DNA from: a virus | Taxonomy: Duplodnaviria > Caudoviricetes | Virus record (IMG/VR): IMGVR_UViG_3300028591_000103 | Location: 87,639 to 151,638 of that record | Reading direction: 5' to 3' (one strand) | DNA: 64,000 bases | Shown: piece by piece, positions 8,737-57,663 of the stretch | How the letters are laid out: the number at the start of each line of letters is the position of its first letter | Numbering within the stretch: the stretch's first letter is position 1 | Translations under genes and position numbers: made by a program | The notes under the pieces: generated by a model | The model's database searches: none | Seen by the model: only the letters and a program-made list of their open reading frames with translations | Told to the model about the DNA's origin: nothing

Positions 8737-8772
8737 TGGTGGGGCTTTCGCCCCACCACTTTCCTTTTTTTT
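8737..8772 (+). terminator. terminator between convergent genes
   Basis: tggtggggc-tttc-gccccacca followed by a T run. Confidence 0.8.
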
Positions 8773-11700
8773 TATTTGATTTGAATAGGAGGTGTATTCG
8801 GAATCGTGGATATCAACCATTTGTTTTCAAATGAATCATCAATCCGAATTCGAATACCAGAACGGAGGAATGGGAATATTTTCAGAGTGTTTGCAGTATC
8901 ATCGATTGCAGAATTCTGATAATTCGAGATATACAATGTGAAACAGTAATCTGTGATTCCGGATGTATAAATCTCGAAACCTTCGCCTTCTTCCAGTTTC
9001 CTCACATGTAATCTCTGTACCTGTCTGTCTTTAATGTCATAATCACTGAGATGTGATAATTTGATACTACCATTCAGACGTTCCCGTTTCCATACCAAAT
9101 CGTACTGCTCCAACAATTTCCGGTTGGAATATTCCATAAATCCCATTGATGTCGAAGTCAGATGGTAAATCGGAACACCATTGATTGTTGGAATATGATG
9201 AAGTTGATTATATGATACAGGATCATCACCAGTATCAGCGTTGATATTATCCAGAATATCCGGTTCCACATCAACATTGTTTGAACGTCTGATATCATCT
9301 GTCAGATATTCATCAATACCATATTTTGTATTCAAGTTGAAAATATACTGAACAGATTCATCCATGACGTTTGCATGACGTTTCAGAATTTCATAGTATG
9401 ATCCATATACATTTCCATCCAGGTCAATATACATATTACCCTTTGGGAATAATTTGGAATCCACCACATCATCAACCAATTCGACGATATCAAGATTCCG
9501 CAATGATGTCAGGTTTCTTAATTGCAAGGAAGTTGGTGATAGAATAATGATATCATCCGGATCAGAAATGAATCGACCATTCACCCAGAATTCATAACGA
9601 TCACGAGACAACGGTGTTGCAATGTATCCTGTTAAGTCAATGATTCCATCTTCTGGAATTGATTGAGAAGCATATCGACAGATGCCAATATAATTCGTAC
9701 GAATCGTATTCACATCTTGATTCAGAGCCAGATCAATCGTCAAACGTTCTCTGAATGTATTCTTGAAGATATTTCCAACAGGATATCTCAGTTCCTTTTC
9801 TTTGTCATAATACACGGTAAACAAATCATTGTCACCGAGATTATATGGAGATACATCATGATCTGTATCGAGTTGATAATGATTCTGGAGATAAACCTCC
9901 ATTGTTTGTAAATCAACATCCGGATCTTTCGGAACGAGAATCACTTCATCTGGTATCAAACGATGTTTGATATTCGAAAAACCTTTCCAATCTTCAAATT
10001 CTTCAAGTTTAACCCAATCCGCATAATGTGTTAATGGAATTGACGCATGTGACATATGAACCGTAATGACTCCTCCAGACATTGGATGAGAAGGATCCGG
10101 CTTGATGTAACATACAAAATCTGCATCAACATATTCGTCAGCGGTTGTCTCAAGTACACGAATACTCGGAGATCCTTCGGTTCCTGTGATCAATGCAGTG
10201 AACATAACAGACGAAGCAATCCCGTTGAATTCCGCATTCGCATTGTTATTCACACATGCTAATGTAACATATGTGTCAGAAGCAAATCCATCGAACATAC
10301 GGATGATTGATGTATTGAATTTCGGAATCTGAATATCGGGATCGGTTGTGATGTTTGATATCGGATGTTTGACATAGATATCGAAATCATCATAATCAAA
10401 TGTCGTTTGATCATTCTTCGCCATCATATCACAGAATCGAATCGGTGAACCTGTGGTGAATAATCCACTGCGAGATGGACGTTTGAACATGATCGCTGAT
10501 TCAATTCCAGAAGCTTCCAAGAAATCCTCCGGAACATCTTCCAATTCAGCAGGATAATAGATTTCGTTTTCGTCATAATGTTTTCTCAAACGAATTTTGT
10601 CATATGGATTATGTGATTCTGTCTGTTGTTTATCCAATGCTAACACCGGTCTGAATCGCACTTTACAATTCATTCCACTCATTGTGATATCATCAAAGAT
10701 ATCTGAATGATCATACACATAATAGATCAAGATCTTTTTCGATGTATAACTTTGATCGGTGAATTCAATGATCAATTGTGTCAAAACATTCATTGTCCAG
10801 TCATATGTTGGATCATCATCGAAGTGTGCATGATTTGCACCAGATTCAACAACGGAACGCACACTGTATTCTGATGGATCCAACCAACGTTTGTGTTCCC
10901 AGTCATACAATCTGACTTCGACTTGATCTGTATATGGTAGATCCTGAATATGTGGACGGAATGTATGGTCTAATTTTGCACGACCATTTGAGATATACAC
11001 CATTGCAGCATCGTATGTGATTACATTATACCATGTAGAAGGTGTTTCCAAATAAGCCATATACAAAGTCAAACGGTCTTGGAATTCTACCTGATACTGA
11101 TACTTCAATGTCAGATCGGATATTTGTGTTTCAATTTTACGTTTTTCGGCAACTGTCTTGGCTTGTGACATTTGATATGATAAACTACGAATTCTACCTT
11201 GCATGTCATGAATCGTTTTGATTGTCTCATTGAATAAAGATGTATACTTTTTCTTTTCCTGATCATAAATCAGACTCTTCCGTTCTCTATCCCATATATT
11301 ATGATCATTCGGTTCATGACGCAATAACGGGTATAATTCCGGATTTGTCAATGGATTGAAATCATGACGGATTGTATTGATAATCATGATATGACCAAGT
11401 TGTGAAGTTTGCATCAGATCTCCAGAACCGATGTAAACAAAATGATGTTTTGGATCAATTGTTTCATCCAAACGATTCGGAATCTCATCATGAAACATCC
11501 AATTCAAACGGGTGTACACATAATCGGAATTTGTTTCGACGAAGATAGGATCACCCGGTAATGAATAACAATCAATGAAATCATCTGCGGGAACATGTGC
11601 CGCTGTTGATAATGGTGGGATTGGATAGAATTCACCATCCCATTCGGAAAATTCATCCAAGAAATTCCGAATGTTATCATTCACGATTGTACATGTCACA

Positions 11701-14700
11701 TCCGTCGTGAGGTATTTCTCCATCACAACAGGATCGGTTGTGTGGAACCATCGTGCATGATGTTCATCCACCTTCAGTTCCAATATTCCGTGGTTCTGCG
11801 AATGATTGATCGATGTAATTGTCATTGGGAATAAACTCAAACCATCATCTGTGTAGGCATATACAGTTTGTCCAACAAAATACTTTCCACCCAATGAAGG
11901 TAATGTCACACCAACAACCTCGTTATGATATACATGACACGGTTTGAAGAACATTTCTTTCGTTGGTCTGTTAGATTGATCAACAACAGACAATGTATTC
12001 ATTCTTGCACAAGACAAATACAATTTATCCCAAGGACCTTGTAAATTTGCTTCACGTGGAGGATTACAATATTCCGAAAGATGTGTCAATGGAATGAAAT
12101 GATTTCCACATAATAATTCATAATGTAATTCTGCATGACGAACATTGACAACGTCATCATGATCGTTTACATCGAATCTTTCATGAACATTCATGACTTC
12201 CATTGGAATACATTGTAAACCGGAATACCGTTCAAATGTCTTCAGTATATCGGAAGAGATTGACACTTTCGTGAATGTGAAATTGTATGTGTATGTATTT
12301 ATGGCATTTCCATTCTTGTCATAATATTTTACGCTCTTTTGCCATTGTGCATACAGGTTTCCATTTACAAATGCATTTTCACATGTTGGTACAAGTCGCA
12401 ATACACGATAACCGGTTCCGGCAATGTGCTCGTAATCAACATGAAGTGTGACTGTATAATGTCCTTGTTGATCATTCTGAACATCTGGGAATTGTACAAG
12501 AGGACTTGTTTTCTCGATCAGAAGTTCTGCATAAGCTGGAGGTGCACCCAATATACTTGGTTGTGGTCGTGTTGTCAAATCGACAGCATCCATCACATAG
12601 AAATCGAAGATGTAATTCTTCATGACGTCATTACAATAATCGACCAACAGTTGGAGGAATTGATTTGCTTGTGATGAAGAATCATAGAATGAATCGATCA
12701 CTTCTTTTGTTACATCAAACTGATTCACACCATCCGGTTCACCGAGTAATTGTGTAGTTACCATCAGATTCAAATGAGCTGCCCAGAATTCCAATTTGTG
12801 TTTTGTCGCATCATCAACGACATTTGGATTATCGTCATAATACATTGACATTTGTATCAGCATCATTCGATCCAATGTTTCTGCCCATTGTCTGTATTCA
12901 TGCAGACTCATCGGTTGATTCATCTTCTTCAGTTGTAAATACAATCGTCTGATTCTACGAACCGCTACACTCTTGAATCCAGTACATTCGTATACTTTCC
13001 TCATGCACATCAATACCTGGTTTACAAGATATTGAATCGTGTATGGATCATAACCAATCTGAGACAATCTTGTCAATTGTTCAATTTGAATCTGTAACGT
13101 GTTTACAACATTCAACATTGGATTCAACAGCGAACCAAGCAAGAAGTAGTTTGCAACCATCAATGTGCTTGGATGATGTGCTTGTAATGAACCACCCTGC
13201 GAATCAACATAGGCTTTCATCTTCTTGCAAGTTCTGTCAATGACTTTTCGATATGAATCGATTCTGGTTTGTGTGTTCCATATCGATTTATAATCCGTCG
13301 TAAAATCATTGATCACATCATAGATTTCCGCCAGGAAAATAGAAACGATATTTGCAACACGTGCATCATCATAATACGATAATACTTCAGAATCGTATGA
13401 ACCGAATTGGATGTAATGATCATGATCCAATTCATCTTGCATGACATAATTGTATTTTGTGTCATTTTCGTATACATTGAATACGAATGGATATCTTACA
13501 CCAACATCCTGAGGAGATTCAAACATATCATGATTTGCATCCAATGGATATTGCATTCCAGCATATGTTGTTACACCCTCGACGTCAGGGAATACACACA
13601 ATTCTTTGTCATCAGAAGATAATGCAGATGGAGGTAAATGAATCACGGAATAATTGATTTTTTCTTTGGGAAGATCCATATTGATTTCGGATAACTTCAA
13701 ATCCGCATAACGTGGATAGAACTTTTTCCGAGTTACCATATACATCAAATAATGCGCGAGTTTATCTTCATTGCCTTGCATCATGGACAATGTATAGAAT
13801 AAGAAATTCAATGCAAATGGGGCACGATATGATTCTTCGGTATAATCAACAACATTATCCGTCATTGCATTCGAGAACTCATAGTTCATCTCAGATGGAT
13901 ATTCCAAGAAAATATCACCATCTATTTTTTGTTTCATGATTTTAGACAGAATGGATATTTCCGTGTTCATATCATGTTTCTGATAATAAATCTTGGAGAG
14001 TTTCATCAGCTGATTCTCGACATACCAATATTTGACATAACCGATATGACGATCAACTTCTTTTGTGAATGCATCGAAATCTCTGAATTCAATATCTGTC
14101 AGATTATCAGTCTTCAATTCAACCGGATTCTCCGTGTCTGTATACAAGAAGAAAAACTTAAAGAGCTCATCACCACGAAGATTATCATTAACATAGAAGA
14201 CATTTTCGATTCCTTTGAAATGTTTGATATCAGGTACATCGAATATCCAACACGGAATATCATCATCATGATTATATTTCAATGCGATGAAGCACTGTTC
14301 GGCCACAGGACGATTGATTCTGTAATCATCTTTATCCGATGATGTGAAATAGTTCGGATACATGATATCATATGTACCGAGTGTTGAGAAAGGTGGTCTG
14401 TATAATGGTGCTAAAACGGCTTTCAAGAAGATGTCATAATTATCACCATATAACATGTCAATGTCAACACGCTGGACACCATTCCAACTTGGATCTGCAT
14501 GTGTCAACTCATCCAGATCCAATAAGAACTTTTCAAATTCTCTCAGATATTCCATATTGATCAATGATGTAATGATCGCACCATTGTAATATGTCTCATA
14601 ACATTTCCTCAGTAATTTCAGCAGATACTTTGCAGGATTGATGACATGCTTCGTATAGTATTGACGTGCATCTGTATCAGTATATTTGATATTGCGTTCA

Positions 14701-15938
14701 TGACCGAGATCCAGTACATCATTCTTGTACGATTTCATTGTATCAATCAATGCATAACATTGACGAAGTGTGTGGAATGAAGCAATATTCTTTCCAACAC
14801 GATTCAATGAAATTGGCGGTGTACAAATTGGAAGATGCTCATCCACATATGTATTTTGTGAATGGATTCTACCACCATATTCGTTTGTCACATGATTGTA
14901 TTGATCATCATAAACATACTGTGTTCCCATCATATCCAGATAGTTTACTGCAGGGAATACTCCGGACACTTCATGGAAATGTTTGATCATATAGATACGG
15001 ACATGAGCTTTCTCCGATTTATACCGTTCGAAGTCAACGGTTGTTTTTTCTTGCATGTTTGTAATAGCACAACCATTTCCTGTCATACTACCAAAGTTCG
15101 GAGAAATCATAATCTCTTTACTGACGATTGAGTCAGAGATCTGAACAATACATCTGCATCCATTGAACTGTGATCCAACACCCTGGATTCCCATATCACT
15201 ATAACGAATCACAGGATTGGCTACGTTCAATTTGGTAATCGGTATTTCAAAATCCAGAACCTTTGATCCATCCAGTTTGTAGATTGTGAATGTAACGTCG
15301 GCAGCATATCTCCATCCGATTTTAAAACGGAAGCCCTTTTCATCAATACCGACATACCAGTCATCGGACATATAACCATTCGTACAACAAATGACTGTGA
15401 ATTTCAGAATCGAAGACATTTCGTCCGATAAGAATCGTGCTGCTGGAATATATTGGCGATTCTCTGTTTCATAAAATGCATGAAGTTTCTGACGAACAAA
15501 TTCATCACGTTCTCCAAAATGCATTTGATCGAAAGGTACATCTACGATGTAATAGTGATTGAATTTATCTCGACAAACATGTTTCTTGTCTGTCTGAGGA
15601 TATTGGGCAATGACAGCATGTGTATTTACGAGCATCTTACTCATTGCATTCTGCAATGATTTACGATACGTTTCTGCGAGAGATTTATCCAGATCTTCGA
15701 AGGTATAATTTGATCGCTCCATCAAATCAACCAACATCTGGAATCCCATATTATTTCCGACAACGTTATATGGTTGCTCGGTTAATAACATGGATGATGG
15801 TTCCATTTCTATCAGTTTCTGATATCGCTGATAAATGTTCTTCCATTTGGTATCATTGTATGTCTCATGACCTTTTCGTATGCCGGTCATGTACTGATGG
15901 AAATGATGAAACCAATCATGGTAATTCATGATAGCCAT
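8772..15938 (-). CDS. giant virion structural protein (2388 aa, probably baseplate/tail)
   Basis: Very long ORF with RBS and late-type promoter; C-terminal GIIDLTG..PLS..YEFWVNGRFI motif resembling large jumbo-phage structural proteins. Confidence 0.6.
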   Translation of the reverse strand: MAIMNYHDWFHHFHQYMTGIRKGHETYNDTKWKNIYQRYQKLIEMEPSSMLLTEQPYNVVGNNMGFQMLVDLMERSNYTFEDLDKSLAETYRKSLQNAMSKMLVNTHAVIAQYPQTDKKHVCRDKFNHYYIVDVPFDQMHFGERDEFVRQKLHAFYETENRQYIPAARFLSDEMSSILKFTVICCTNGYMSDDWYVGIDEKGFRFKIGWRYAADVTFTIYKLDGSKVLDFEIPITKLNVANPVIRYSDMGIQGVGSQFNGCRCIVQISDSIVSKEIMISPNFGSMTGNGCAITNMQEKTTVDFERYKSEKAHVRIYMIKHFHEVSGVFPAVNYLDMMGTQYVYDDQYNHVTNEYGGRIHSQNTYVDEHLPICTPPISLNRVGKNIASFHTLRQCYALIDTMKSYKNDVLDLGHERNIKYTDTDARQYYTKHVINPAKYLLKLLRKCYETYYNGAIITSLINMEYLREFEKFLLDLDELTHADPSWNGVQRVDIDMLYGDNYDIFLKAVLAPLYRPPFSTLGTYDIMYPNYFTSSDKDDYRINRPVAEQCFIALKYNHDDDIPCWIFDVPDIKHFKGIENVFYVNDNLRGDELFKFFFLYTDTENPVELKTDNLTDIEFRDFDAFTKEVDRHIGYVKYWYVENQLMKLSKIYYQKHDMNTEISILSKIMKQKIDGDIFLEYPSEMNYEFSNAMTDNVVDYTEESYRAPFALNFLFYTLSMMQGNEDKLAHYLMYMVTRKKFYPRYADLKLSEINMDLPKEKINYSVIHLPPSALSSDDKELCVFPDVEGVTTYAGMQYPLDANHDMFESPQDVGVRYPFVFNVYENDTKYNYVMQDELDHDHYIQFGSYDSEVLSYYDDARVANIVSIFLAEIYDVINDFTTDYKSIWNTQTRIDSYRKVIDRTCKKMKAYVDSQGGSLQAHHPSTLMVANYFLLGSLLNPMLNVVNTLQIQIEQLTRLSQIGYDPYTIQYLVNQVLMCMRKVYECTGFKSVAVRRIRRLYLQLKKMNQPMSLHEYRQWAETLDRMMLIQMSMYYDDNPNVVDDATKHKLEFWAAHLNLMVTTQLLGEPDGVNQFDVTKEVIDSFYDSSSQANQFLQLLVDYCNDVMKNYIFDFYVMDAVDLTTRPQPSILGAPPAYAELLIEKTSPLVQFPDVQNDQQGHYTVTLHVDYEHIAGTGYRVLRLVPTCENAFVNGNLYAQWQKSVKYYDKNGNAINTYTYNFTFTKVSISSDILKTFERYSGLQCIPMEVMNVHERFDVNDHDDVVNVRHAELHYELLCGNHFIPLTHLSEYCNPPREANLQGPWDKLYLSCARMNTLSVVDQSNRPTKEMFFKPCHVYHNEVVGVTLPSLGGKYFVGQTVYAYTDDGLSLFPMTITSINHSQNHGILELKVDEHHARWFHTTDPVVMEKYLTTDVTCTIVNDNIRNFLDEFSEWDGEFYPIPPLSTAAHVPADDFIDCYSLPGDPIFVETNSDYVYTRLNWMFHDEIPNRLDETIDPKHHFVYIGSGDLMQTSQLGHIMIINTIRHDFNPLTNPELYPLLRHEPNDHNIWDRERKSLIYDQEKKKYTSLFNETIKTIHDMQGRIRSLSYQMSQAKTVAEKRKIETQISDLTLKYQYQVEFQDRLTLYMAYLETPSTWYNVITYDAAMVYISNGRAKLDHTFRPHIQDLPYTDQVEVRLYDWEHKRWLDPSEYSVRSVVESGANHAHFDDDPTYDWTMNVLTQLIIEFTDQSYTSKKILIYYVYDHSDIFDDITMSGMNCKVRFRPVLALDKQQTESHNPYDKIRLRKHYDENEIYYPAELEDVPEDFLEASGIESAIMFKRPSRSGLFTTGSPIRFCDMMAKNDQTTFDYDDFDIYVKHPISNITTDPDIQIPKFNTSIIRMFDGFASDTYVTLACVNNNANAEFNGIASSVMFTALITGTEGSPSIRVLETTADEYVDADFVCYIKPDPSHPMSGGVITVHMSHASIPLTHYADWVKLEEFEDWKGFSNIKHRLIPDEVILVPKDPDVDLQTMEVYLQNHYQLDTDHDVSPYNLGDNDLFTVYYDKEKELRYPVGNIFKNTFRERLTIDLALNQDVNTIRTNYIGICRYASQSIPEDGIIDLTGYIATPLSRDRYEFWVNGRFISDPDDIIILSPTSLQLRNLTSLRNLDIVELVDDVVDSKLFPKGNMYIDLDGNVYGSYYEILKRHANVMDESVQYIFNLNTKYGIDEYLTDDIRRSNNVDVEPDILDNINADTGDDPVSYNQLHHIPTINGVPIYHLTSTSMGFMEYSNRKLLEQYDLVWKRERLNGSIKLSHLSDYDIKDRQVQRLHVRKLEEGEGFEIYTSGITDYCFTLYISNYQNSAIDDTANTLKIFPFLRSGIRIRIDDSFENKWLISTIPNTPPIQIK

Positions 15939-15963
15939 AAAGATAGACTCCTTTCATTGAAAG

Positions 15964-15976
15964 TTACAGAACCGTT
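15964..15976 (-). promoter_or_regulatory. putative late promoter
   Basis: AACG-GTTCTG-TAA upstream of the 2388-aa gene. Confidence 0.45.
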
Positions 15977-15978
15977 TT

Positions 15979-15996
15979 GTGGGGCCTAAGCCCCAC
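15979..15996. terminator. GC hairpin preceding early promoter copy 1
   Basis: gtggggc-ctaa-gccccac. Confidence 0.5.
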
Positions 15997-16008
15997 GTCA
16001 CGAAACCT

Positions 16009-16041
16009 GTTTTTCATATATATATAATTAATATGAATAGA
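16009..16041 (+). promoter_or_regulatory. 33-bp early promoter-like repeat, copy 1
   Basis: gtttttcatatatatataattaatatgaataga, identical at 56050-56082 (-) and 57631-57663 (-); contains TATATAAT. Confidence 0.8.
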
Positions 16042-16076
16042 AGAAATCCATGGTGGATCGAAAGGAGGTGATAGAT

Positions 16077-16133
16077 ATGACAAATGTCGTAATCATCACC
16101 GTTCCTGTAGACACTGAAATCATTTGTGAGTAA
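16077..16133 (+). CDS. 18-aa micropeptide MTNVVIITVPVDTEIICE
   Basis: RBS GAAAGGAGGTGA; homologous peptide at 57533-57589 with synonymous codon differences. Confidence 0.75.
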   Translation: MTNVVIITVPVDTEIICE

Positions 16134-16268
16134 TGATTAAGAGTGACGAGCCCCCAAATTTATTTGGAACGTCAGAAACCATGGATTTCTAATATTCATT
16201 AAAGAAAGAGTCTTTAAGACTCAATAAATATTTTAAACTCCGCAAGGAGAGAAAGTGAAGGTATTAAA

Positions 16269-16823
16269 ATGAAAAACATGAATTCTAAAATCAACGAGAA
16301 CCTCGATACTCTTAAGTCTCTGGCGTTCGATGCCAGAAATGCTCTCATGGAAATGAGAGCAACATTTGTCGCATGGAATGAGGAAGCATTCCGTGCGATC
16401 GTCATGGAAGACGCTGAACTCACAGAGGGGCTTATCAATGAGCTCCGCGAATGCGGGTTCGAAACAGAATCCATTGATGACGGTCGCAAGATCGTCAGCG
16501 AGCTCATCGAAAATCTGGGCGAAACTGCCCGGGAAATGAATGAAGCTCAACGTGAACTGACTCTGCAGAATCTCGTCGGTGGCTCAACAAGAACCTGCTC
16601 GGAGTGTCATGCCCCGATAAACGACACCGACGAATATTGTCCGATTTGCGGTTCCAAGGAGGGTGCACTGAAGCCCTATGTAGAGCCGCGGAGAATTGAG
16701 TGTGTCACATGTAAATGCGGACGCACTTATGATCAAGAATATCGCTTCTGCCCGAGCTGTGGTAAAGCGAATTCTAAGCACAGCTTGAACAAAGAACCTG
16801 ATGCATTCGACATATTCAAATGA
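16269..16823 (+). CDS. double zinc-ribbon protein (early cargo gene)
   Basis: CSEC..CPICG and CKCG..CPSCG at the C-terminus, helical N-terminus. Confidence 0.75.
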   Translation: MKNMNSKINENLDTLKSLAFDARNALMEMRATFVAWNEEAFRAIVMEDAELTEGLINELRECGFETESIDDGRKIVSELIENLGETAREMNEAQRELTLQNLVGGSTRTCSECHAPINDTDEYCPICGSKEGALKPYVEPRRIECVTCKCGRTYDQEYRFCPSCGKANSKHSLNKEPDAFDIFK

Positions 16824-16958: not shown

Positions 16959-19900
16959 TTAGCCATTCCAGATTTTGCCAATATGCCGTTTTAATTCCAC
17001 CAAGATTTTGTTAGCTGATGCGGTAACAATCATACTTGGAATCATACGTTTCATGATACTGCCAGCGGATACAAACATGGAGATTTCAGTTTCCGGATCA
17101 TCTTCCGTAAATGGTTCCTGTCCTTCTGGAATGACTTCGGAAATAACTTGCTTGGATGCTGCATAAACAACACACTTATCTCCGATTGACACATCATCAC
17201 CATGTTCAATATAAATCTCGATCATGACGTCACAATGTTGTCCTTTAATTGATTGACCATTGATCGGTTCTGTCGGTAATGAATACAGTGTATCCAACTT
17301 ATACACGGAATTCGATTTATCATGTTTATCCAGAATTTTACGTTTCTGGATATTCTCTTTGAAATGTGCATCAAGCAATTCAAACAGAGAAGGAGATAAC
17401 TTATCCATTCCCTTTGTTGTATACATTCGAATCTCTTTGACAGTTCCGGCATGTTTGGATTTGATAATACGTTTCGCAGTATCAAGTGAATTGGAGTCAC
17501 TCTGGAATGCTTTCAGGAATGCATCAACTGCTTTATCACCAGTATCTCCAAGACCGAATACAATCAACGGATCTCCGATTTCAACCTCGTCACCAACTTT
17601 GACAATGGACTCCACATCATCGGTTGCATTTAACTTTGATGCCTGACGCATTGTGACATGTGTTCCAAGTCGTTTTGACATCTTCTCTGTGATCATACCA
17701 GCATCCTCATATGTTGCATATGTTCCACAGAAAGCAACCTTTGCAAGCGGACCAACATTCATTCTCACCATTCCAGAAGAATCCTTGGAGAAGAACTTTT
17801 CATGATATGCCAAAATATCATTCTGTTCAAATGTATCTCCGGGTTCGAAATTGGATTTCAGTTTGTTATCCACAAAGAATCCGGATCCGGGGTTGAATGA
17901 ATATCTGTCGGATACTGGTATCGCTTGTTTCTTTTTTGATGCGTATTCGACGATCATGTATCCATCGCTGATCTCCAACACTTTACCATTCTCTTGTGCA
18001 GTAACGGCAAATTCATCAGAAACATATGCAGCAACCAACTCATCGACACCATTCGAAACAAGAACCGGTTCCGCTTCATCAGTAGGAAGAATATGTCCTG
18101 TTTGAGATGTTGCGATTGCCGTACGAATTGCGTCATCACGAGAAACAGTTCCTGGAGTTAATAACTCGGAAAATGATGCGAGTTGCAGATCATTGTAATC
18201 TGCATCGATACCTTTTGTGGAAGTATAACCACGAACAGATTCCAATTTTGGATCAACCGTCAATTGTCGATTGATACCAACGTTATTGGAGTTTGGCGTT
18301 GAGATGGCAATCTTACCAACCATGGAATCATCAAATGAACGTTTTGCTTCAGAGTATGCTTTATCTTCATTGACTCCACCGAATCCCTTCTTAGAAACAT
18401 TTTCAGTTTCATGAAGTTCAATCATAGGATTCAATGCAGAAGAAGTCGCAATCGTTTGTACATTCATCAACATTGTCATGATTTCATTCGGATTAAATTT
18501 CAATTTAGATTCTTTGAATTTTGATCCTGGAGCATTGTTATACTTTGATATTGCAACAGCCAATGCGTGATGAATCATTGCGGGTATAATTTCGGAAGAA
18601 CGAATACGATACAATGAAGCATTACTCTCGGATGTGAAATTATTATCCGCCAACAGATTTGATGCATAAACCAGCATGTCACACAAATTATCCGGTAACT
18701 TATAATGATGACACACATCTTCTGTGATGGCATCTACAAAGAAATGATAATTTGTAATGAATGTTGTTTTCTGTGAAAACTGTTTGAAGAAGATCTGATT
18801 GAACATATCCACATAGATTGAATTATCATCCATGATCGTAGATTCAAATTCGGTTGTTGTATATTGTCTCGTATTGATTCGATAGAATCCATTGAACAAC
18901 AACTGATTCTGAATGGTGTTCTGAACAGCCAATGTTTTATCCTTGAACGGAATCTTCATGAATCCTTCTGCGTTTTCCTTGGGTCCAATATAACGATATT
19001 GTGCACCAGATCTCTTCAGCAATGAAGACAGACCCTCCCATGCAGCAATCGATACACCGACAGGCAACATGATACCCATCAGCTTCATTTCTGCATACAT
19101 GGATAATTTTGCTGGTTTGCCCTTATTATACGCTTTCAATATTTCTTCAGGAAGTGTCGGGAGAATATTGTCCGTAATGGTTCTGTTATGACGATCCAAG
19201 CCCGTTTCTGTATTGATAACAAGTGGAACTTGATCGATCATTCCACAACAGAATTCATTTTCATTCACAGTAACAAAATTGAATTCACGCAAACATTGTT
19301 CGCGGTTGAATATGATTCTGCATTTCCGTTCTTTATTTTCATAAGAGAACCATTTCTTTGCAAACTCGTCGTATTCAATCGTAGAAACAAATCGGGAATT
19401 CGTCACAGAAGAAGAACCGTATTTGACATATGGATTCTTACCATTGGCGTCATTTTTCTGTGCTACGGCCTTCATCAACAGGGTCAAATCAACCAACGAT
19501 TTTGTGTCATATCGTTGAACAGAAATCTTGTTGTAGTTAGATGTCAACATGACAAGTTTCTTATTGATCTTTAGAATTGGAATCGGGAATTCCTGTTTTC
19601 CGATCGTATACCAAGATCCATTATACAAGAACTTTCCATTCACCATCTTCGGTATGCGGATGTTGATGTGTGATTGTGTACCAGTCTTCTTATTCTTCAA
19701 AGATACTTTCCAATTATGCATCAATGAAGTGGAATCGGAAATATCCGTGACTTCAACATTCGTAACAACAAATCCTTCTGGAAGTTTTTGTAATGTCATA
19801 AATGTTGCGACGATATCCTGATCCATCATTTTTTCTTCATATTCTTTTGATATCATTGGGAATGAAGACCCATGCAATGCTCCATGATTTGTGGTTGTTA

Positions 19901-21155
19901 ATTTCAACGGTTTAATCGGAGGAGGGAGTGGTACATCTGTTACGGAAGAAACAGCACCAGTGTTCAATTCCTTTAAACGAATTTGACCGATGTTTGAACG
20001 CAATCTCATCTCACGTGCTGATGTGACTGTATTCATTGTACTTTGATCATTTGAAACCTCACGAGATCCTGCCAATTGGGAAGAAGCTTGATTGATTAAT
20101 TGATTCTCTACAGGATGATCTCCACCTTGTTCCAGATCTTGAGAGATTCGTTTATAATCCGATACAGGTGCATTATTCGGAGAAATACGATGAATCAACG
20201 ATGCATTGATTTCAAATGTCTTTGCATTGTATAATTCATCTTTCTCTGTTTCTGTAGAATCAATACCGAATCGATCTTTGATATTCTTCAAAGATTGTTT
20301 GAGATTCCCTGAACCACCATCTGTATTGGTGGCATTTTCTCCCTGATCTGATTCCGATGTATCTGCATTGATTTCATCCATCAAATCGTCAATGCTGGAA
20401 TCACTCATAGATGCGGGCTTTGATGATACTCCTTTAAAAGGAACACCGATTGTTGAACAAATGTTCTGCAAAGCTTCGGAATCACTCGGCATGATAGAAC
20501 GCAAATCCAGTTTATAATCTGCTCCGGTAGAACGAAGGATCACTGTTGTATCTTGTGTGGATTTTGTTTGACCAGCAATACAAGCTCCCAACAGACCATT
20601 GATCAAATCCGCGTTCATGGAATCTTTACTGCTTCCATCATAAATTTTCACACGGTCTGTATTCACAACCCATATTCTTCGTTTTGCCCCAGAGAACATT
20701 TGGGCAATTGTATTCATCATCCCAATAACATGATTACCCATATATTCGGGAGACAATTCTCGAATGATACGGTTCAGTTGATAACATACATCCGAAATCG
20801 GGACATACACATTTGTATTTGCCGTTCTTTTAATCGGATATGGTTCTACCGTTAATTGCGGAACCATCTTCTGTTTCATCAAGTATTCGACACGTTTTTT
20901 ATATTCCTGCTGAGATAGTTGATACTTGAAATTCATTGGACCTATCTTACTTGCGACGGAATACGGAATAATAATATTTTTGTAATTGGTACGAGGTGGT
21001 GGCATTTTCTTGATCAATTCCAGATCATATTCATAAGAACCTGCCATCAAAAATACAACAACATTATCCTTCTGATCCGGAAGCGCATATGGTGTTGATA
21101 CCGGTTGCAAATTTCTTCCAGTGGAAAGATCTGTTGCTTCTTGAATAAAGCTCAT
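16959..21155 (-). CDS. phage multisubunit RNA polymerase beta subunit, virion type (phiKZ gp178-like)
   Basis: RpoB-like motifs STPNSNNVGINRQL, ATSQTGH, TYEDAG, VKVGDEVEIGDPL, GDK..SKQVIS; about 1400 aa with a long N-terminal extension; RBS supports a start at 21155. Confidence 0.85.
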   Translation of the reverse strand: MSFIQEATDLSTGRNLQPVSTPYALPDQKDNVVVFLMAGSYEYDLELIKKMPPPRTNYKNIIIPYSVASKIGPMNFKYQLSQQEYKKRVEYLMKQKMVPQLTVEPYPIKRTANTNVYVPISDVCYQLNRIIRELSPEYMGNHVIGMMNTIAQMFSGAKRRIWVVNTDRVKIYDGSSKDSMNADLINGLLGACIAGQTKSTQDTTVILRSTGADYKLDLRSIMPSDSEALQNICSTIGVPFKGVSSKPASMSDSSIDDLMDEINADTSESDQGENATNTDGGSGNLKQSLKNIKDRFGIDSTETEKDELYNAKTFEINASLIHRISPNNAPVSDYKRISQDLEQGGDHPVENQLINQASSQLAGSREVSNDQSTMNTVTSAREMRLRSNIGQIRLKELNTGAVSSVTDVPLPPPIKPLKLTTTNHGALHGSSFPMISKEYEEKMMDQDIVATFMTLQKLPEGFVVTNVEVTDISDSTSLMHNWKVSLKNKKTGTQSHINIRIPKMVNGKFLYNGSWYTIGKQEFPIPILKINKKLVMLTSNYNKISVQRYDTKSLVDLTLLMKAVAQKNDANGKNPYVKYGSSSVTNSRFVSTIEYDEFAKKWFSYENKERKCRIIFNREQCLREFNFVTVNENEFCCGMIDQVPLVINTETGLDRHNRTITDNILPTLPEEILKAYNKGKPAKLSMYAEMKLMGIMLPVGVSIAAWEGLSSLLKRSGAQYRYIGPKENAEGFMKIPFKDKTLAVQNTIQNQLLFNGFYRINTRQYTTTEFESTIMDDNSIYVDMFNQIFFKQFSQKTTFITNYHFFVDAITEDVCHHYKLPDNLCDMLVYASNLLADNNFTSESNASLYRIRSSEIIPAMIHHALAVAISKYNNAPGSKFKESKLKFNPNEIMTMLMNVQTIATSSALNPMIELHETENVSKKGFGGVNEDKAYSEAKRSFDDSMVGKIAISTPNSNNVGINRQLTVDPKLESVRGYTSTKGIDADYNDLQLASFSELLTPGTVSRDDAIRTAIATSQTGHILPTDEAEPVLVSNGVDELVAAYVSDEFAVTAQENGKVLEISDGYMIVEYASKKKQAIPVSDRYSFNPGSGFFVDNKLKSNFEPGDTFEQNDILAYHEKFFSKDSSGMVRMNVGPLAKVAFCGTYATYEDAGMITEKMSKRLGTHVTMRQASKLNATDDVESIVKVGDEVEIGDPLIVFGLGDTGDKAVDAFLKAFQSDSNSLDTAKRIIKSKHAGTVKEIRMYTTKGMDKLSPSLFELLDAHFKENIQKRKILDKHDKSNSVYKLDTLYSLPTEPINGQSIKGQHCDVMIEIYIEHGDDVSIGDKCVVYAASKQVISEVIPEGQEPFTEDDPETEISMFVSAGSIMKRMIPSMIVTASANKILVELKRHIGKIWNG

Positions 21156-21359
21156 ATATTTCACTCCTAACGAAAAAAAAAAATGGAGGTGTTTGTGTGT
21201 TTCATTTAAAACAAAACACAACTTATTATCACACATGTCCGCTGTGTGGAGCGAATCTTGATCCAGGTGAATCGTGTGATTGCCAAAAGGAGCAATCAAC
21301 TGCTCCAAAGGTTACCGAAAAGTCCGATAACAATATGAATGAAAGGGGTGTAATGAAAA

Positions 21360-23406: not shown

Positions 23407-26400
23407 TTATAAATAATTTCCAGCCTGGCTAACATCTTTGAATTTCATATTATTACCAAAGATGATAGCTAGACCATGTTCATTATCGAAATCCCAATCA
23501 CAATCAATCATGGTATCCCATTTTGATGAGCGGTCATTCGCATAAACGTATGCCGGTCTTAGATGCTTCTCCGGATGTTCCCAATCAGCAGACTTTAGTT
23601 CGGATTCCGACATCTCAGATTTCCAGCTCTCCATGTAATCACGAATCTGTTTTCGAACAGAATCATTGAGGAGTTTCTCGCTATTCTTTACGATATCGAG
23701 AGCTTTGTAAGTGCTTTCAAGAGATATTCCTCGTGGAATTCTGACCTTGTATTCCTTGCCGAAGAAATTCATGTTTGTAGTATCATATTTCGAATCACTT
23801 TCTTTGATAGTATACAAAAGCTTTTCGAATTCATCCCAACTTTTGGCAATCTGCTTAAGACCGTTTTTTGCATCATGTACATAAGTGAATATTCTGGTAT
23901 CGGTCTTGGACTTATTGCCCATCAGGATTTCGTCACCACGTCCATTATTCGCGAGAGGAATAAATTCGGCACCAGGATGACCAGCATAATCATATTTGCC
24001 GCGATCACGCAAAGATGATTCAATGAGCCCCCATTCACATCCTTGGAACCATCCGTCAGCACCTTTGATTCCGATATCTTCAATACCGGACTCGAGTAAT
24101 CGTTTGTATCCATCTGGAAGAGATCTTCCGATAATAGATTCGCACTTAGTGATATGTGATTTGAAACGGTCTAAATCTTTTGGTGGATAGTAAGCTTCCT
24201 GAACAAAACTCGGTGCTTCTTTCTGAACCTTATCAATGAACTTTTGACCGATGGATTCAATGCCCTTGACATTGTTTGCTTTGCTTCTCTGTGCATGGAA
24301 TCCATCATTCAGCATCTTGATATATGCTTCAAAATCTTCTGCGTCCGGTTGTTCCTTTGTATCAAAGACATAAACCTTTCCGTTATAGTACAGAAGTTCG
24401 TCATCACACTGAATGACACCGAACGGGACTGTTCCTTGTGGATGTAAGAATTCAGCATCCTCTCCAACAAGTTCATCTGTCCACATCCACATGAGAATGT
24501 ATGTGTTATCGACAACCCAGTATTCGGTATCATATCCTTTTTCATCAGGAATGTTAATAGATTCATTTAATATTTCCTGATAAGCTTTCGACTTATAAAC
24601 CTTCTTGAAACCTTCAGGAAGTTTATAACCACAACCCGCTTCGATATAGTCTGTATCTGTTGGATCAGGGTTCTTAAATGAATCAAGCAATCCCTTCATG
24701 GAATCAGAAAGTTTCTTGATCTGGTTTTCACCAGACATGTCATAGACTCCATATACCTTATCCTTTACAGAATAACCGACCAGTTCATCATTGAAGCATG
24801 AGAACAGTGGAATGAATACACTGAGCTTTCTTGCTCGTTGGATTTCTTCCGGGTAATAGACTCTACAAATGATATGGTATTTAGAACCATCTTTGACCAT
24901 CATCATGTATTGTCCATGATGATCTTGACGCCATTTTACAATGCCTTTCTCCGTGGAAAGATATCGTTTCAAATCCTCCGGAAGAGGACCTGACTGGGCT
25001 TCTATCTTTTGAAGACGTTTGTCAGAACTCTTCTTCCGGAGACCGTCAAAAAAACCTTCTTGGACGGGTTCACCATCATCTGCAGGCTTTTCACGAGTCT
25101 CAAGCATCTTCAGAACACCGGTTGCTTCAGAAACAAAAGCTTGAATCATTCTCTTTACAGTCATGATTTCACTTTGTTTCACATCAGCACGCATCATCGC
25201 CATAAGATCAGATAAGCAATGATTCAACCGCAGGAGCTGTTTGATTTCGGCTTCATTGAATACTTTCTTCATCTTTGAAGCCTTATGAACGACACGATTG
25301 CATTGTCTGCCTTCCTTGCGGAATGCATCACAAAGCTCTTCGATTTCCATCTCATTGTCGTTCAATATACCAAGAGCTTTTCTGAGGTGAATATCAAGCT
25401 CCTTACCGATATTACCTCGCGTCAGAAAAAAAGCTTCTTGTGCAACATCAGGTGCGGTTCCTTCAGGAGATTGCAAGAAGTCTTTCAGCTGTTGAAGCGT
25501 CATACCCTTCAGTCTTTCAGTACCCTGTGCAAGCAGCTCATCCATCGTCATATTATCAAAATCGATATCAGAAACTTCTGATGGAGTATCTGTCATTTCA
25601 GAAGAAGTATCAGTGCCGAGTTCAGCATTCAGATCATCTTCGGTCGGTTCATCTGTTGCACCCAAATCATCAGATACATCGGACGAATTGGTTGCATCCA
25701 GATTCACATCATCTGTATTGATGTCTGCATCAGCATTGGTATCATCCGAAATCTTTTCTGCAATTTCGTTCGAAACATCGTTAACCGTAACGAGTTCCTT
25801 TTGACCATCCGCTGCAGTACCATCATCAACAGCCGGTGTATCTGTCGGCGCAGTTGCATCTGCATCTGTTGAAGGTGCGTCACCACTGATTTCGGGTGCA
25901 GAGTTGTCACCACCATCAATGGAAACAGAAGCTGCATTTGGATCTGCATCCGGAGCAGTATCAGGATTACCGAAATCAATTTCTTCCTGGAAGAATCTGG
26001 AATGTTTCGGCTTCTGATACATTGCTTCTTCCATACGAACAACATCCATCTTCGACATTGCGTTAGAAGTAACAGCACCGAGTTCCTTTGAGCTGACACG
26101 ATTCAAATCGTCTGCAGCAATAGCATTCTTCTTCTTTCCAGAATTGACAGGAATCATGAGGGCAAGATAATCTCTCTTGGTTTCACCATCAATTTCGAAT
26201 TCGAATGCTGCATGGTATTTATCAACAGGATCAACAAGAATCAGAATACGTGTTGGTGTGACGAACTTCCAGATCTTATCGATGTCAGTGCAGTTTACCT
26301 TTTCACCCCAGATTTTGAATGCTGCATCACGAATCATAACGCCGAGGCCATCGGCATCACGAATAATGTATGCAGTCTCAAGTTGCTTTCTGGTGATACG

Positions 26401-26967
26401 ATTCTTCTTGTCCAGTTCAAACAGGACAGGAAGCTTGACATAATAGTCTTTGCCGTCACATTCACCGAAATTGATTGTAACACGGGAAGGAACGCGTTCG
26501 TCATTGATATGAATCATATCACCACCGAACAAACCTTCTTGATACAATTTTTCAGTATATTCTTTATACATTTTATCCGCAGTCGCATAGACACGTTTGT
26601 CATATTGATGACCGGTTTCACGTGCGAACTGTGATAATGTTGCATATGCTTCCTGAACAAAATCATCTCTTGTCTTGAATTTGGAATAATCCGTGAATTC
26701 AGATTCTTGAACAGTCGCATCACCAGGAATATTGGTAACACGTCCATCCAACATGTTCAGTTCGAGCGAAGTGATCTCGATGTCATCTTCCAGAGGAATG
26801 CTCATTCGGTTAAACGCTCTTTGAGGTTTACCGTTCATACTGAGGTCATCCATCTCTTGGAACAGATGGGCACATTCGAGAATTGCTTCATCCATTTGTG
26901 CTTCCTGGACGGCTTCTTCATCTCGTCCAGTTTTTGCTTGAAGCTGCTTACGAATATACTCAAGCAT
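23407..26967 (-). CDS. putative internal head polyprotein with three SMI1/KNR4 (SUKH)-like domains
   Basis: Many xQE(A/G/S/E) motifs and an acidic linker, then GPLPEDLKRYL..FIPLF, GYKLPEGFKKVY..TVPFG, GRSLPDGYKRLL..FIPLANNGRGD..IAKSWDEF, and C-terminal DCDWDFDNEHGLAIIF; RBS supports a start at 26967. Confidence 0.7.
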   Translation of the reverse strand: MLEYIRKQLQAKTGRDEEAVQEAQMDEAILECAHLFQEMDDLSMNGKPQRAFNRMSIPLEDDIEITSLELNMLDGRVTNIPGDATVQESEFTDYSKFKTRDDFVQEAYATLSQFARETGHQYDKRVYATADKMYKEYTEKLYQEGLFGGDMIHINDERVPSRVTINFGECDGKDYYVKLPVLFELDKKNRITRKQLETAYIIRDADGLGVMIRDAAFKIWGEKVNCTDIDKIWKFVTPTRILILVDPVDKYHAAFEFEIDGETKRDYLALMIPVNSGKKKNAIAADDLNRVSSKELGAVTSNAMSKMDVVRMEEAMYQKPKHSRFFQEEIDFGNPDTAPDADPNAASVSIDGGDNSAPEISGDAPSTDADATAPTDTPAVDDGTAADGQKELVTVNDVSNEIAEKISDDTNADADINTDDVNLDATNSSDVSDDLGATDEPTEDDLNAELGTDTSSEMTDTPSEVSDIDFDNMTMDELLAQGTERLKGMTLQQLKDFLQSPEGTAPDVAQEAFFLTRGNIGKELDIHLRKALGILNDNEMEIEELCDAFRKEGRQCNRVVHKASKMKKVFNEAEIKQLLRLNHCLSDLMAMMRADVKQSEIMTVKRMIQAFVSEATGVLKMLETREKPADDGEPVQEGFFDGLRKKSSDKRLQKIEAQSGPLPEDLKRYLSTEKGIVKWRQDHHGQYMMMVKDGSKYHIICRVYYPEEIQRARKLSVFIPLFSCFNDELVGYSVKDKVYGVYDMSGENQIKKLSDSMKGLLDSFKNPDPTDTDYIEAGCGYKLPEGFKKVYKSKAYQEILNESINIPDEKGYDTEYWVVDNTYILMWMWTDELVGEDAEFLHPQGTVPFGVIQCDDELLYYNGKVYVFDTKEQPDAEDFEAYIKMLNDGFHAQRSKANNVKGIESIGQKFIDKVQKEAPSFVQEAYYPPKDLDRFKSHITKCESIIGRSLPDGYKRLLESGIEDIGIKGADGWFQGCEWGLIESSLRDRGKYDYAGHPGAEFIPLANNGRGDEILMGNKSKTDTRIFTYVHDAKNGLKQIAKSWDEFEKLLYTIKESDSKYDTTNMNFFGKEYKVRIPRGISLESTYKALDIVKNSEKLLNDSVRKQIRDYMESWKSEMSESELKSADWEHPEKHLRPAYVYANDRSSKWDTMIDCDWDFDNEHGLAIIFGNNMKFKDVSQAGNYL

Positions 26968-27045
26968 ATTCTTCTCTCCTTTACATTTTTTTTTTGAAAT
27001 GGGACATATATCGTTCTTAGGTACTGGAGACATTGTGTATACTAT

Positions 27046-55952: not shown

Positions 55953-56049
55953 GGTAATCCTTCACTTTCTCTCACAATTATCGGCTGTGAGCAACCATCA
56001 AAAGCTTATTTTTTTTTATCGAATAGAATCATTCATTATTCAATTATCT

Positions 56050-56082
56050 TCTATTCATATTAATTATATATATATGAAAAAC
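56050..56082 (-). promoter_or_regulatory. 33-bp early promoter-like repeat, copy 2
   Basis: Identical to 16009-16041. Confidence 0.8.
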
Positions 56083-56911: not shown

Positions 56912-57106
56912 TTAGTCCCCTGTGTAGTTCCACAGGGAACCATAAAACTTTCTGATAGCTTCATACTCTTCGCGAGTAATCAGGCCATCATCGAGTGCAT
57001 GCCCAAAGGCGTCACACCTCGACATCTGTACCGGAACGTCGTTGTAGCGACGTTCGAAGTCGCGATACATTGCATGAATATCATAGGAAGATAACTCTCT
57101 GCTCAT
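56912..57106 (-). CDS. hypothetical early protein
   Basis: RBS AAGGAGG; ATGA overlap; ends GSLWNYTGD. Confidence 0.65.
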   Translation of the reverse strand: MSRELSSYDIHAMYRDFERRYNDVPVQMSRCDAFGHALDDGLITREEYEAIRKFYGSLWNYTGD

Positions 57107-57399
57107 TTCAGTTCCTCCTTCCATGAGTTTATGAAGTTTGCTCCTTGCCGGAGCGTTCTGACGCGTTTCTCGCTCGTCATGAACATCATAAGCAGCTCAT
57201 CGTAGTTGTCCGTCGTGTTGTCGGTCACCGAATACACTGCCTGACGACATTCGTTGCTGGTGTGATCAGTATTCCCGAATCTGGTGATCACATCCTTCGC
57301 CAGGTTGATGAATGCTTCTTCGGAATTGATGGCGACAGCCAATGCCACCATGAGATTTTGTATGTCGTGACACACTCTTGTTATTTCAGCATTGTTCAT
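57103..57399 (-). CDS. hypothetical early protein (cassette cargo)
   Basis: Start MNNAEITR after AGAAAGTGAGGGG. Confidence 0.65.
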   Translation of the reverse strand: MNNAEITRVCHDIQNLMVALAVAINSEEAFINLAKDVITRFGNTDHTSNECRQAVYSVTDNTTDNYDELLMMFMTSEKRVRTLRQGANFINSWKEELK

Positions 57400-57532
57400 G
57401 GTTCCCCTCACTTTCTCCTCTTTCGAGGTTTAAATATTTTTGAGTCTTAAGACTCATCTATTAATGAATGAGGAAACATCTTCATCAGGTTCTGTATTTA
57501 CCCATTTTATGAAGTTGATTTTCACAAGGAAA

Positions 57533-57589
57533 TTATTCGCAGATTATTTCCACATCTACTGGAATCGGAATTCTTACGATTTCACTCAT
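57533..57589 (-). CDS. 18-aa micropeptide MSEIVRIPIPVDVEIICE
   Basis: RBS GGAGGTGA; homolog of 16077-16133. Confidence 0.75.
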   Translation of the reverse strand: MSEIVRIPIPVDVEIICE

Positions 57590-57630
57590 GATTATCACCT
57601 CCATTCAATTCCCTGCAGAAGATGATTTCC

Positions 57631-57663
57631 TCTATTCATATTAATTATATATATATGAAAAAC
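57631..57663 (-). promoter_or_regulatory. 33-bp early promoter-like repeat, copy 3
   Basis: Identical to 16009-16041. Confidence 0.8.

Follow-up and report, generated by a model that had tools for sequence, protein, structure and literature searches.

At the head of two predicted early transcripts of an uncultured giant phage lies a gene of only 18 codons that is enclosed in a long-range RNA helix, and comparison of ten homologous copies indicates that gene and helix are both under selection. The ORF reads as a real, translated micro-gene that is selected at the amino-acid level, and the enclosing helix (referred to below as the clamp) is seen, when its arms are compared between copies, to be maintained by compensatory conservation. 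That a selected gene and a selected fold exist here we hold to be highly probable. As to function, we lean towards a trans-acting early micropeptide that would be translated from a nuclease-protected mini-mRNA, which may be cut free of its transcript. Genes this short are invisible to gene callers; the signal of selection on both the peptide and the RNA fold is unusually clean, which makes the element a clean test case for pipelines that seek small genes and RNA structure jointly, and its place is at the very start of the infection programme in a clade of uncultured giant phages.

Early promoters and layout of the element

The window, by which we mean the whole 64-kb stretch of DNA that was analysed, is the right-hand part of a 151.6-kb IMG/VR record with an estimated completeness of 56%. 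The features on which the following account draws are these:

16009-16041, plus strand: early promoter of copy A (virion RNA polymerase type), 33 bp identical to copy B; predicted +1 is G 16035
16035-16197, plus strand: clamped domain of copy A, following the 33-bp promoter
16035-16054, plus strand: 5' clamp arm of copy A, pairing with 16178-16197 and beginning at the predicted +1
16061-16072, plus strand: extended Shine-Dalgarno (SD) sequence of the small ORF of copy A, with its GGAGG core at 16064-16068, 8 nt before the ATG
16077-16133, plus strand: 18-codon ORF with its stop codon, copy A; assessed by codon-substitution tests on its homologous copies
16118-16138, plus strand: predicted small hairpin across the last codons and the stop, copy A
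16178-16197, plus strand: 3' clamp arm of copy A, for which own-arm pairing beats pairing with other copies' arms
16198-16268, plus strand: linker to the downstream gene of copy A, with an AU-rich stretch, hairpins at 16208-16222 (a palindrome) and 16238-16249, and a polypurine ribosome-binding site (RBS) at 16250-16261
16269-16823, plus strand: downstream gene of copy A, a 184-residue double zinc-ribbon protein (Pfam Zn_Ribbon_1 and DZR)
57631-57663, minus strand: early promoter of copy B, the same 33 bp; predicted +1 is 57637
57466-57637, minus strand: clamped domain of copy B, with arms at about 57612-57637 and 57466-57491 and the ORF at 57589-57533
57103-57399, minus strand: downstream gene of copy B, a 98-residue protein without a Pfam family
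56021-56081 (core 56081-56050), minus strand: third promoter copy, predicted +1 at 56056, followed by a short +1-anchored hairpin only and no small ORF
55952-55563, minus strand: small metalloprotease-like gene behind the third promoter, its leader lacking the small ORF

Most of this layout had been described for copy A in an earlier note on the same DNA, and the promoter, the stem arms at 16042-16054 and 16178-16190, the RBS, the ORF, the palindrome, the hairpin and the polypurine RBS all lie where that note had placed them. The gene behind copy A, which it had called a zinc-ribbon gene, carries the corresponding Pfam domains, and the second copy does lie on the other strand with a different arm sequence that still pairs and an unrelated downstream gene. 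Two of its particulars needed amendment. The peptides of copies A and B are similar and of equal length, as claimed, but a recount gives 11 rather than 10 identical residues out of 18. The 13-bp stem is likewise present, but its extent had been understated: beyond a 2x2 internal loop the helix continues with five further pairs (16035-16039 with 16193-16197), so that the helix of copy A begins at the predicted first transcribed base. In all, it consists of 18 Watson-Crick pairs and the one 2x2 internal loop; the closing helix of copy B has 24 Watson-Crick pairs.

There are three occurrences of the 32-nt promoter core in the 64-kb window, where zero are expected by chance, and the same motif is found one to twelve times per related jumbo-phage record. 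The early promoters of phage AR9 have been mapped by dRNA-seq and primer extension as A-A-A-T-A-T-A-T-A-T-T-A-T followed, after six bases, by G at +1, and the injected polymerase of the virion transcribes them with no need for newly made protein (PMC5312081). The window promoters depart by one mismatch from the A-T-A-T-A-T-A-T-T-A-T block of AR9, which their relatives match exactly, and have a G at the right distance; PBS1 early promoters also start with G-A-A-T-A, as do those described here. By this measure the window promoters fit the consensus of the AR9-type early class that is served by virion RNA polymerase, and it is to the experimentally mapped AR9 promoter that the assertion of the earlier note, that the element stands at the head of early transcripts, can now be tied. 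Genome-encoded subunits of a phage multisubunit RNA polymerase, which would be expected alongside promoters of this type, are represented by a 1449-residue beta-like protein (16959-21308, minus strand; Pfam RNA_pol_Rpb2_6) that also matches annotated viral polymerase beta subunits. Among cultured phages it is closest to the beta subunits of the AR9/PBS1 group (infecting Bacillus) and of Staphylococcus jumbo phages, with 28-30% identity. The +1 positions at 16035, 57637 and 56056 are accordingly predictions by homology to phages whose polymerase is only 28-30% identical, and complementarity between the arms often extends 2-8 nt upstream of them, which leaves room for a slightly shifted start site or for a role at the level of DNA. 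Two of the ten copies (C and E) have no consensus early promoter.

The small-ORF domain of copy A is placed in the divergent gap beside a gene for a 2388-residue protein (8772-15938, minus strand) and has the polymerase gene on its other side, so that it is flanked by two very large genes. Further along, 23407-27033 (minus strand) encodes a 1208-residue protein with tandem SMI1/KNR4 (SUKH) domains and a C-terminal DUF6985 (Pfam).

Selection on the peptide and on the helix

The peptides share the consensus M-x-E-[IV]-V-[IV]-I-x-[IV]-P-x-[GDE]-x-E-I-I-C-E. They are acidic and rich in beta-branched residues, 17-21 residues long with three to four acidic residues and a net charge of about -3; length is 18 residues in eight of the ten copies, and the other two have N-terminal extensions. 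When nine copies are compared codon by codon, the third position varies in 17 of 17 codons, the first in 8 and the second in 6, and the synonymous share of codon differences is 0.54 in frame as against 0.07 and 0.09 in the other two frames, a value that was attained in none of 2000 column shuffles. Eight residues are invariant despite a varying third codon base, serine codons alternate between AGT and TCT among copies, and the position of the stop codon is constant, whether it is TAA or TGA. Third-position variation, an excess of synonymous change, and a frame and stop that are kept amount to a substitution pattern of the coding type. The last five residues, whose distance from the stop is constant, are the most strongly conserved, and the N-terminal half is conserved as well. 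A strong RBS block precedes the ORF in eight of the ten copies; copy E has no good RBS. Two other ways of accounting for the ORF were considered and rejected: a chance ORF within a stabilising hairpin is ruled out by the codon evidence, and a longer read-through protein by tandem stop codons in four copies.

Each of the ten RNAs can be closed by 17-27 base pairs that link its start at +1 to a segment lying 160-212 nt further downstream, and both domains of the window are far more stably folded than dinucleotide-preserving shuffles of them (z = -5.3 for copy A and -4.1 for copy B). As MAFFT misplaced the 3' arms in an alignment of the ten RNAs, the covariation test was made by scripts in which the arms were anchored. 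The arm sequences fall into at least seven unrelated classes, each complementary to its own partner. With the conserved first seven arm bases left out of the computation, the mean duplex energy is -17.8 kcal/mol with the own partner and -6.9 kcal/mol with the partners from other copies; none of 100000 permutations reached the own-arm pairing total, and among the 5' arms as among the 3' arms, nine of ten pair best with the arm of their own copy. At arm positions 8-22 the fraction of canonical pairs is 0.85 with the own arm and 0.37-0.44 with other copies' arms, and each of these columns contains three to four pair types. Pairing has been kept, in other words, through changes on both strands in independent copies. 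The earlier note had proposed a covariation test of the stem, and the arm comparison shows that own arms pair well and other copies' arms poorly, over seven arm classes. Together with the codon-position and synonymous-change tests on the ten copies, it bears out the claim that peptide and fold are both under selection. One feature of the helices runs the other way. Among single clamp mismatches, A.C (nine) outnumbers G.U (four), which is the opposite of what is expected under selection on the sense RNA; the numbers are small, and as a consequence of this excess the antisense duplex is computed to be the more stable one in seven of the ten copies.

As predicted, the clamp would leave no free 5' end and would enclose the RBS, the ORF and the stop-codon hairpin. 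That hairpin, which covers the last codons and the stop, is predicted in all but one of the ten copies; its sequence changes from copy to copy, and C, E, F, I and J have strong versions. From the stop codon to the 3' arm, the interiors of the domains cannot be aligned with one another. When the RNA is folded shut, the RBS and start codon are for the most part predicted to be paired, and efficient translation is therefore not guaranteed. In copies C (L056 7207-7441, in genome G008) and E (L063 13280-13468), an SD-like A-G-G-U-G-A-U-A stands just before the 3' arm, as if it were the remnant of a duplication.

Distribution and genomic neighbourhood

At the nucleotide level, neither copy A nor the polymerase gene gave a match among 50,697 records of cultured phages, and no close relatives came from a protein-based locus search that took the polymerase as its seed; the promoter pattern succeeded instead, leading to nine related contigs, four of them of 231-263 kb and 89-100% complete. 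Further copies came from peptide patterns that were run over viral and metagenome contigs. The strict pattern P-V-D-x-E-I-I-C-E has no match outside this genome, and a looser C-terminal pattern recovered the other copies; a match of the looser pattern in contig L091 was set aside as due to chance, lying as it does inside a long frame. There are ten distinct copies in all: two in this genome, three in G008 (263 kb), one in G005 and four in metagenome contigs. The earlier note had suggested a search of related jumbo phages for homologues, and the yield is thus eight further copies that preserve frame and pairing. The G005 copy is divergent, with 21 residues, and resides in a complete 231-kb phage. 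Run on the fetched genomes, a hidden Markov model (HMM) of the peptide returned six copies at E values of 1e-7 to 1e-10, the next match being at 0.04; by the same HMM, the near-complete relatives G004 and G006, which have the same promoter, are without a copy, and the gene is therefore dispensable.

This subfamily has one to three copies per genome. A sister subfamily, with several more per genome, was found in two further contigs of 250-258 kb; its peptides have 17-20 residues and end in G-S-I-I-I-C-E, its RBS is the same, and its clamps have 17-29 pairs spanning 196-237 nt. Common to both subfamilies at matching positions are M-x-E-I, I-P, G-[ST] and I-I-C-E. The element is spread, as these genomic comparisons show, across several giant-phage lineages. 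The ORFs have never been called as genes, and a collection of 15 billion predicted proteins has no entry for three longer versions with alternative starts (at least 20 residues). Within the two domains of the window there is no match to any Rfam family; weak matches fall only on the upstream terminator and the promoter. At 62 promoter-like sites of PBS1 there is neither a +1-anchored long-range helix (the best score is 18, compared with 28-30 here) nor a similar ORF.

What lies downstream of the domain varies. Copy C is followed by no gene at all: the order there is terminator, domain, strong terminator and a convergent gene, and in two or more sister-subfamily copies, too, the domain runs straight into a terminator without a downstream gene. 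Such stand-alone copies argue against a plain leader-peptide switch, which the earlier note had entertained beside a first-made takeover or anti-defence peptide and a processed mini-mRNA; the latter two stay candidates. The remaining copies precede mutually unrelated genes (the zinc ribbon, the small metalloprotease-like protein and several unknowns). The metalloprotease-like gene is preceded by a full small-ORF domain in contig L094 and in the window by nothing more than a short +1-anchored hairpin. Together, the stand-alone copy C, the unrelated downstream genes and the domain-less metalloprotease leader weaken the case for a dedicated leader switch and favour an autonomous gene; behind the terminators of copy C and two sister copies there is no gene that a leader peptide or attenuator could regulate.

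Copies A, D and G share one intergenic backbone but have different genes behind it, which suggests that cassettes are exchanged at this site. The backbone at 15939-16034, comprising a GC hairpin (15981-15998) and a conserved stretch that faces the gene for the 2388-residue protein, recurs in L062, L094, L096, L098 and G009. The linker behind the domain, with its AU-rich stretch, small hairpins and polypurine RBS, follows a plan shared by copies B, D, F, G and H, and also by the leader of the third promoter at 56081; a small hairpin with a polypurine RBS directly after it stands ahead of downstream genes at 16198-16268, at 57400-57465 and 55953-56020 (both on the minus strand) and at L004 330-372. 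In L004, 28 nt around the start codon are identical to those of copy A and the proteins diverge afterwards, which looks like a recombination joint within the first codons.

Early leaders without the ORF also open with a +1-anchored hairpin (window 56021-56081, minus strand; G001:28403, in L004/L007; G004:18917; G009:57922). In three relatives this short hairpin has a conserved 14-nt loop with an SD-like A-G-G-U-G-A-U, a covarying stem and no conserved ORF. It may be a second small 5' RNA element occupying the slot of the small ORF, or a decayed copy. An SD-like loop in that slot means that ribosome binding near the 5' end may itself matter, and this keeps alive the model of a stabiliser acting in cis.

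Possible functions and known systems

In the scheme that we favour, the ORF would lie right at the 5' terminus of the RNAs that the injected virion RNA polymerase transcribes, and the first nucleotides of the transcript would pair with the segment 160-212 nt downstream. The clamp might then shield the 5' end from the 5'-dependent RNases of a Firmicute-type host; alternatively or additionally, a double-strand-specific cut at the clamp could free a stable mini-mRNA from the downstream message. The peptide would be made in bulk in the first minutes and would act in trans on some abundant component of host or phage. The nuclease steps of this scheme and the target of the peptide are pure inference. 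One may go further and see in the family of 17-21 residues a bulk-made takeover effector that binds some abundant host machine (the ribosome, the RNA-decay machinery or host RNA polymerase, for instance), or else an intrinsic ribosome-arrest peptide whose parked ribosome shields early RNA; this is a speculation to which we give a rather low probability. In the effector version, several clamped mini-mRNAs would yield an acidic peptide the size of a beta hairpin during the first minutes after infection. A trans-acting peptide of this size would rank with the smallest effectors known from phages, and a clamp that worked as proposed would exemplify how giant phages with a polymerase of their own keep host RNases away from their first transcripts.

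Chief among the rival readings is a role in cis, as a place for parking ribosomes or stabilising the message. By keeping a ribosome close to the 5' end, the ORF would stabilise or tune the early mRNA that follows, either as a 5' stabiliser of the STAB-SD kind or as an arrest peptide that stalls at its conserved C-terminus and stop, the released peptide having no role of its own. The very strong RBS close to the 5' end is what such a role would call for, as are the concentration of conservation just before the stop and the hairpin across it, and the appearance of an SD-like loop in the same slot of related leaders points the same way. Protection from RNase J1 and RNase Y that depends on ribosomes is, moreover, documented in B. 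subtilis (PMC5737220). Against it, copy C and the stand-alone sister copies have nothing downstream to protect, downstream genes bring their own hairpin and polypurine RBS, no alternative pairing was found between the domain and the start region of the downstream gene, and the N-terminal half of the peptide is conserved too. We judge the role in cis unlikely, and still less is to be said for the folded RNA as the effector (one that would, for example, capture ribosomal subunits, an RNase or a defence sensor as a sponge or decoy), with the peptide secondary or the RNA dual in function. Strong selection on the fold, several copies per genome that each have a strong promoter of their own, and the existence of stand-alone units would suit an effector RNA, and RNAs of dual function with small ORFs are known (RNAIII/hld, SR1/SR1P). 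An effector RNA would not be expected to have an interior that, arms, RBS and ORF apart, cannot be aligned, and the sole sequence that is conserved across lineages is read as codons; nor does any Rfam family match. This alternative seems to us improbable.

The clamp might also be an inverted repeat that matters as DNA, at the ends of a mobile or recombining cassette or as a cruciform, with the RNA helix as a by-product. The pairing a few bases upstream of the predicted +1 and the excess of A.C over G.U mismatches speak for such a repeat; the domain is, furthermore, present or absent before homologous genes, and different genes follow homologous domains, in a manner resembling PeSL shuffling (PMC2839356). 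Ends of the transposase type do not, however, diverge into at least seven inner-arm classes that stay complementary, the helix begins at or beside +1 in all ten copies, and neither target-site duplications nor recombinase genes were seen nearby, so that we consider a DNA-level repeat very improbable. Hardly credible, finally, is a gene like those of type I toxins, with a fold-back mRNA that keeps a toxic peptide silent until it is processed. The 5'-3' fold-back with a largely paired RBS and start codon does recall the hok-type mRNAs. The peptide, however, has 17-21 residues and is acidic, too short to span a membrane and unlike the hydrophobic peptides of such systems (usually 25-60 residues); a membrane toxin is ruled out by this composition. 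On the opposite strand, where an antitoxin RNA would be expected to start, there is no phage early promoter, and the sigma-70-like matches are no stronger than those of chance.

Several known systems resemble the element in part. Its early units are like those of AR9 and PBS1 in having an extended, AT-rich promoter that places +1 at a G after another six nt, and in belonging to jumbo phages with a multisubunit RNA polymerase; long 5' leaders with unexplained motifs have been reported for AR9 (PMC5312081). PBS1 differs in having neither the +1-anchored long-range helix nor a similar small ORF, and its polymerase is only 28-30% identical. In T4-type phages, repeated PeSL cassettes of early promoter and stem-loop flank small variable early genes and appear to drive their shuffling (PMC2839356, PMC4122927). 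Units of promoter and stem-loop are also found here at the borders of exchanged early genes, but the stem-loops of PeSL are short terminators, without a conserved ORF and combined with host sigma-70 promoters, whereas the clamp spans 160-212 nt without a T-run and separate GC-rich terminators lie upstream. Type I toxin mRNAs such as hok share the pairing of the 5' end with a 3' segment and a translation start that is buried when the RNA is closed; here the peptide is acidic and falls short of the length of a membrane toxin, no antisense RNA was found, and the element is phage-borne and present in several copies.

Among dual-function small RNAs with a translated small ORF, RNAIII/hld of S. aureus and SR1/SR1P of B. 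subtilis are similarly compact, structured RNAs of about 200 nt that encode a very small peptide; the present element differs in that no base-pairing target region is evident and conservation is confined to the codons and the clamp. RNase III processing stems, as in the early mRNAs of T7, rRNA precursors and SP82 early RNA, resemble the clamp as helices of about two turns formed by the sequences that flank a functional unit, cleavage being in our case a proposal. In the hbs mRNA of B. subtilis, pairing between 5' and 3' segments acts together with initiating ribosomes to control the access of RNase Y and RNase J1 (PMC5737220). Like hbs and the STAB-SD elements, the domain combines long-range 5'/3' pairing with a strong SD sequence near the 5' end; in hbs, however, the protected message is the main gene, whereas here it is a separate, conserved 18-codon ORF, sometimes with nothing downstream.
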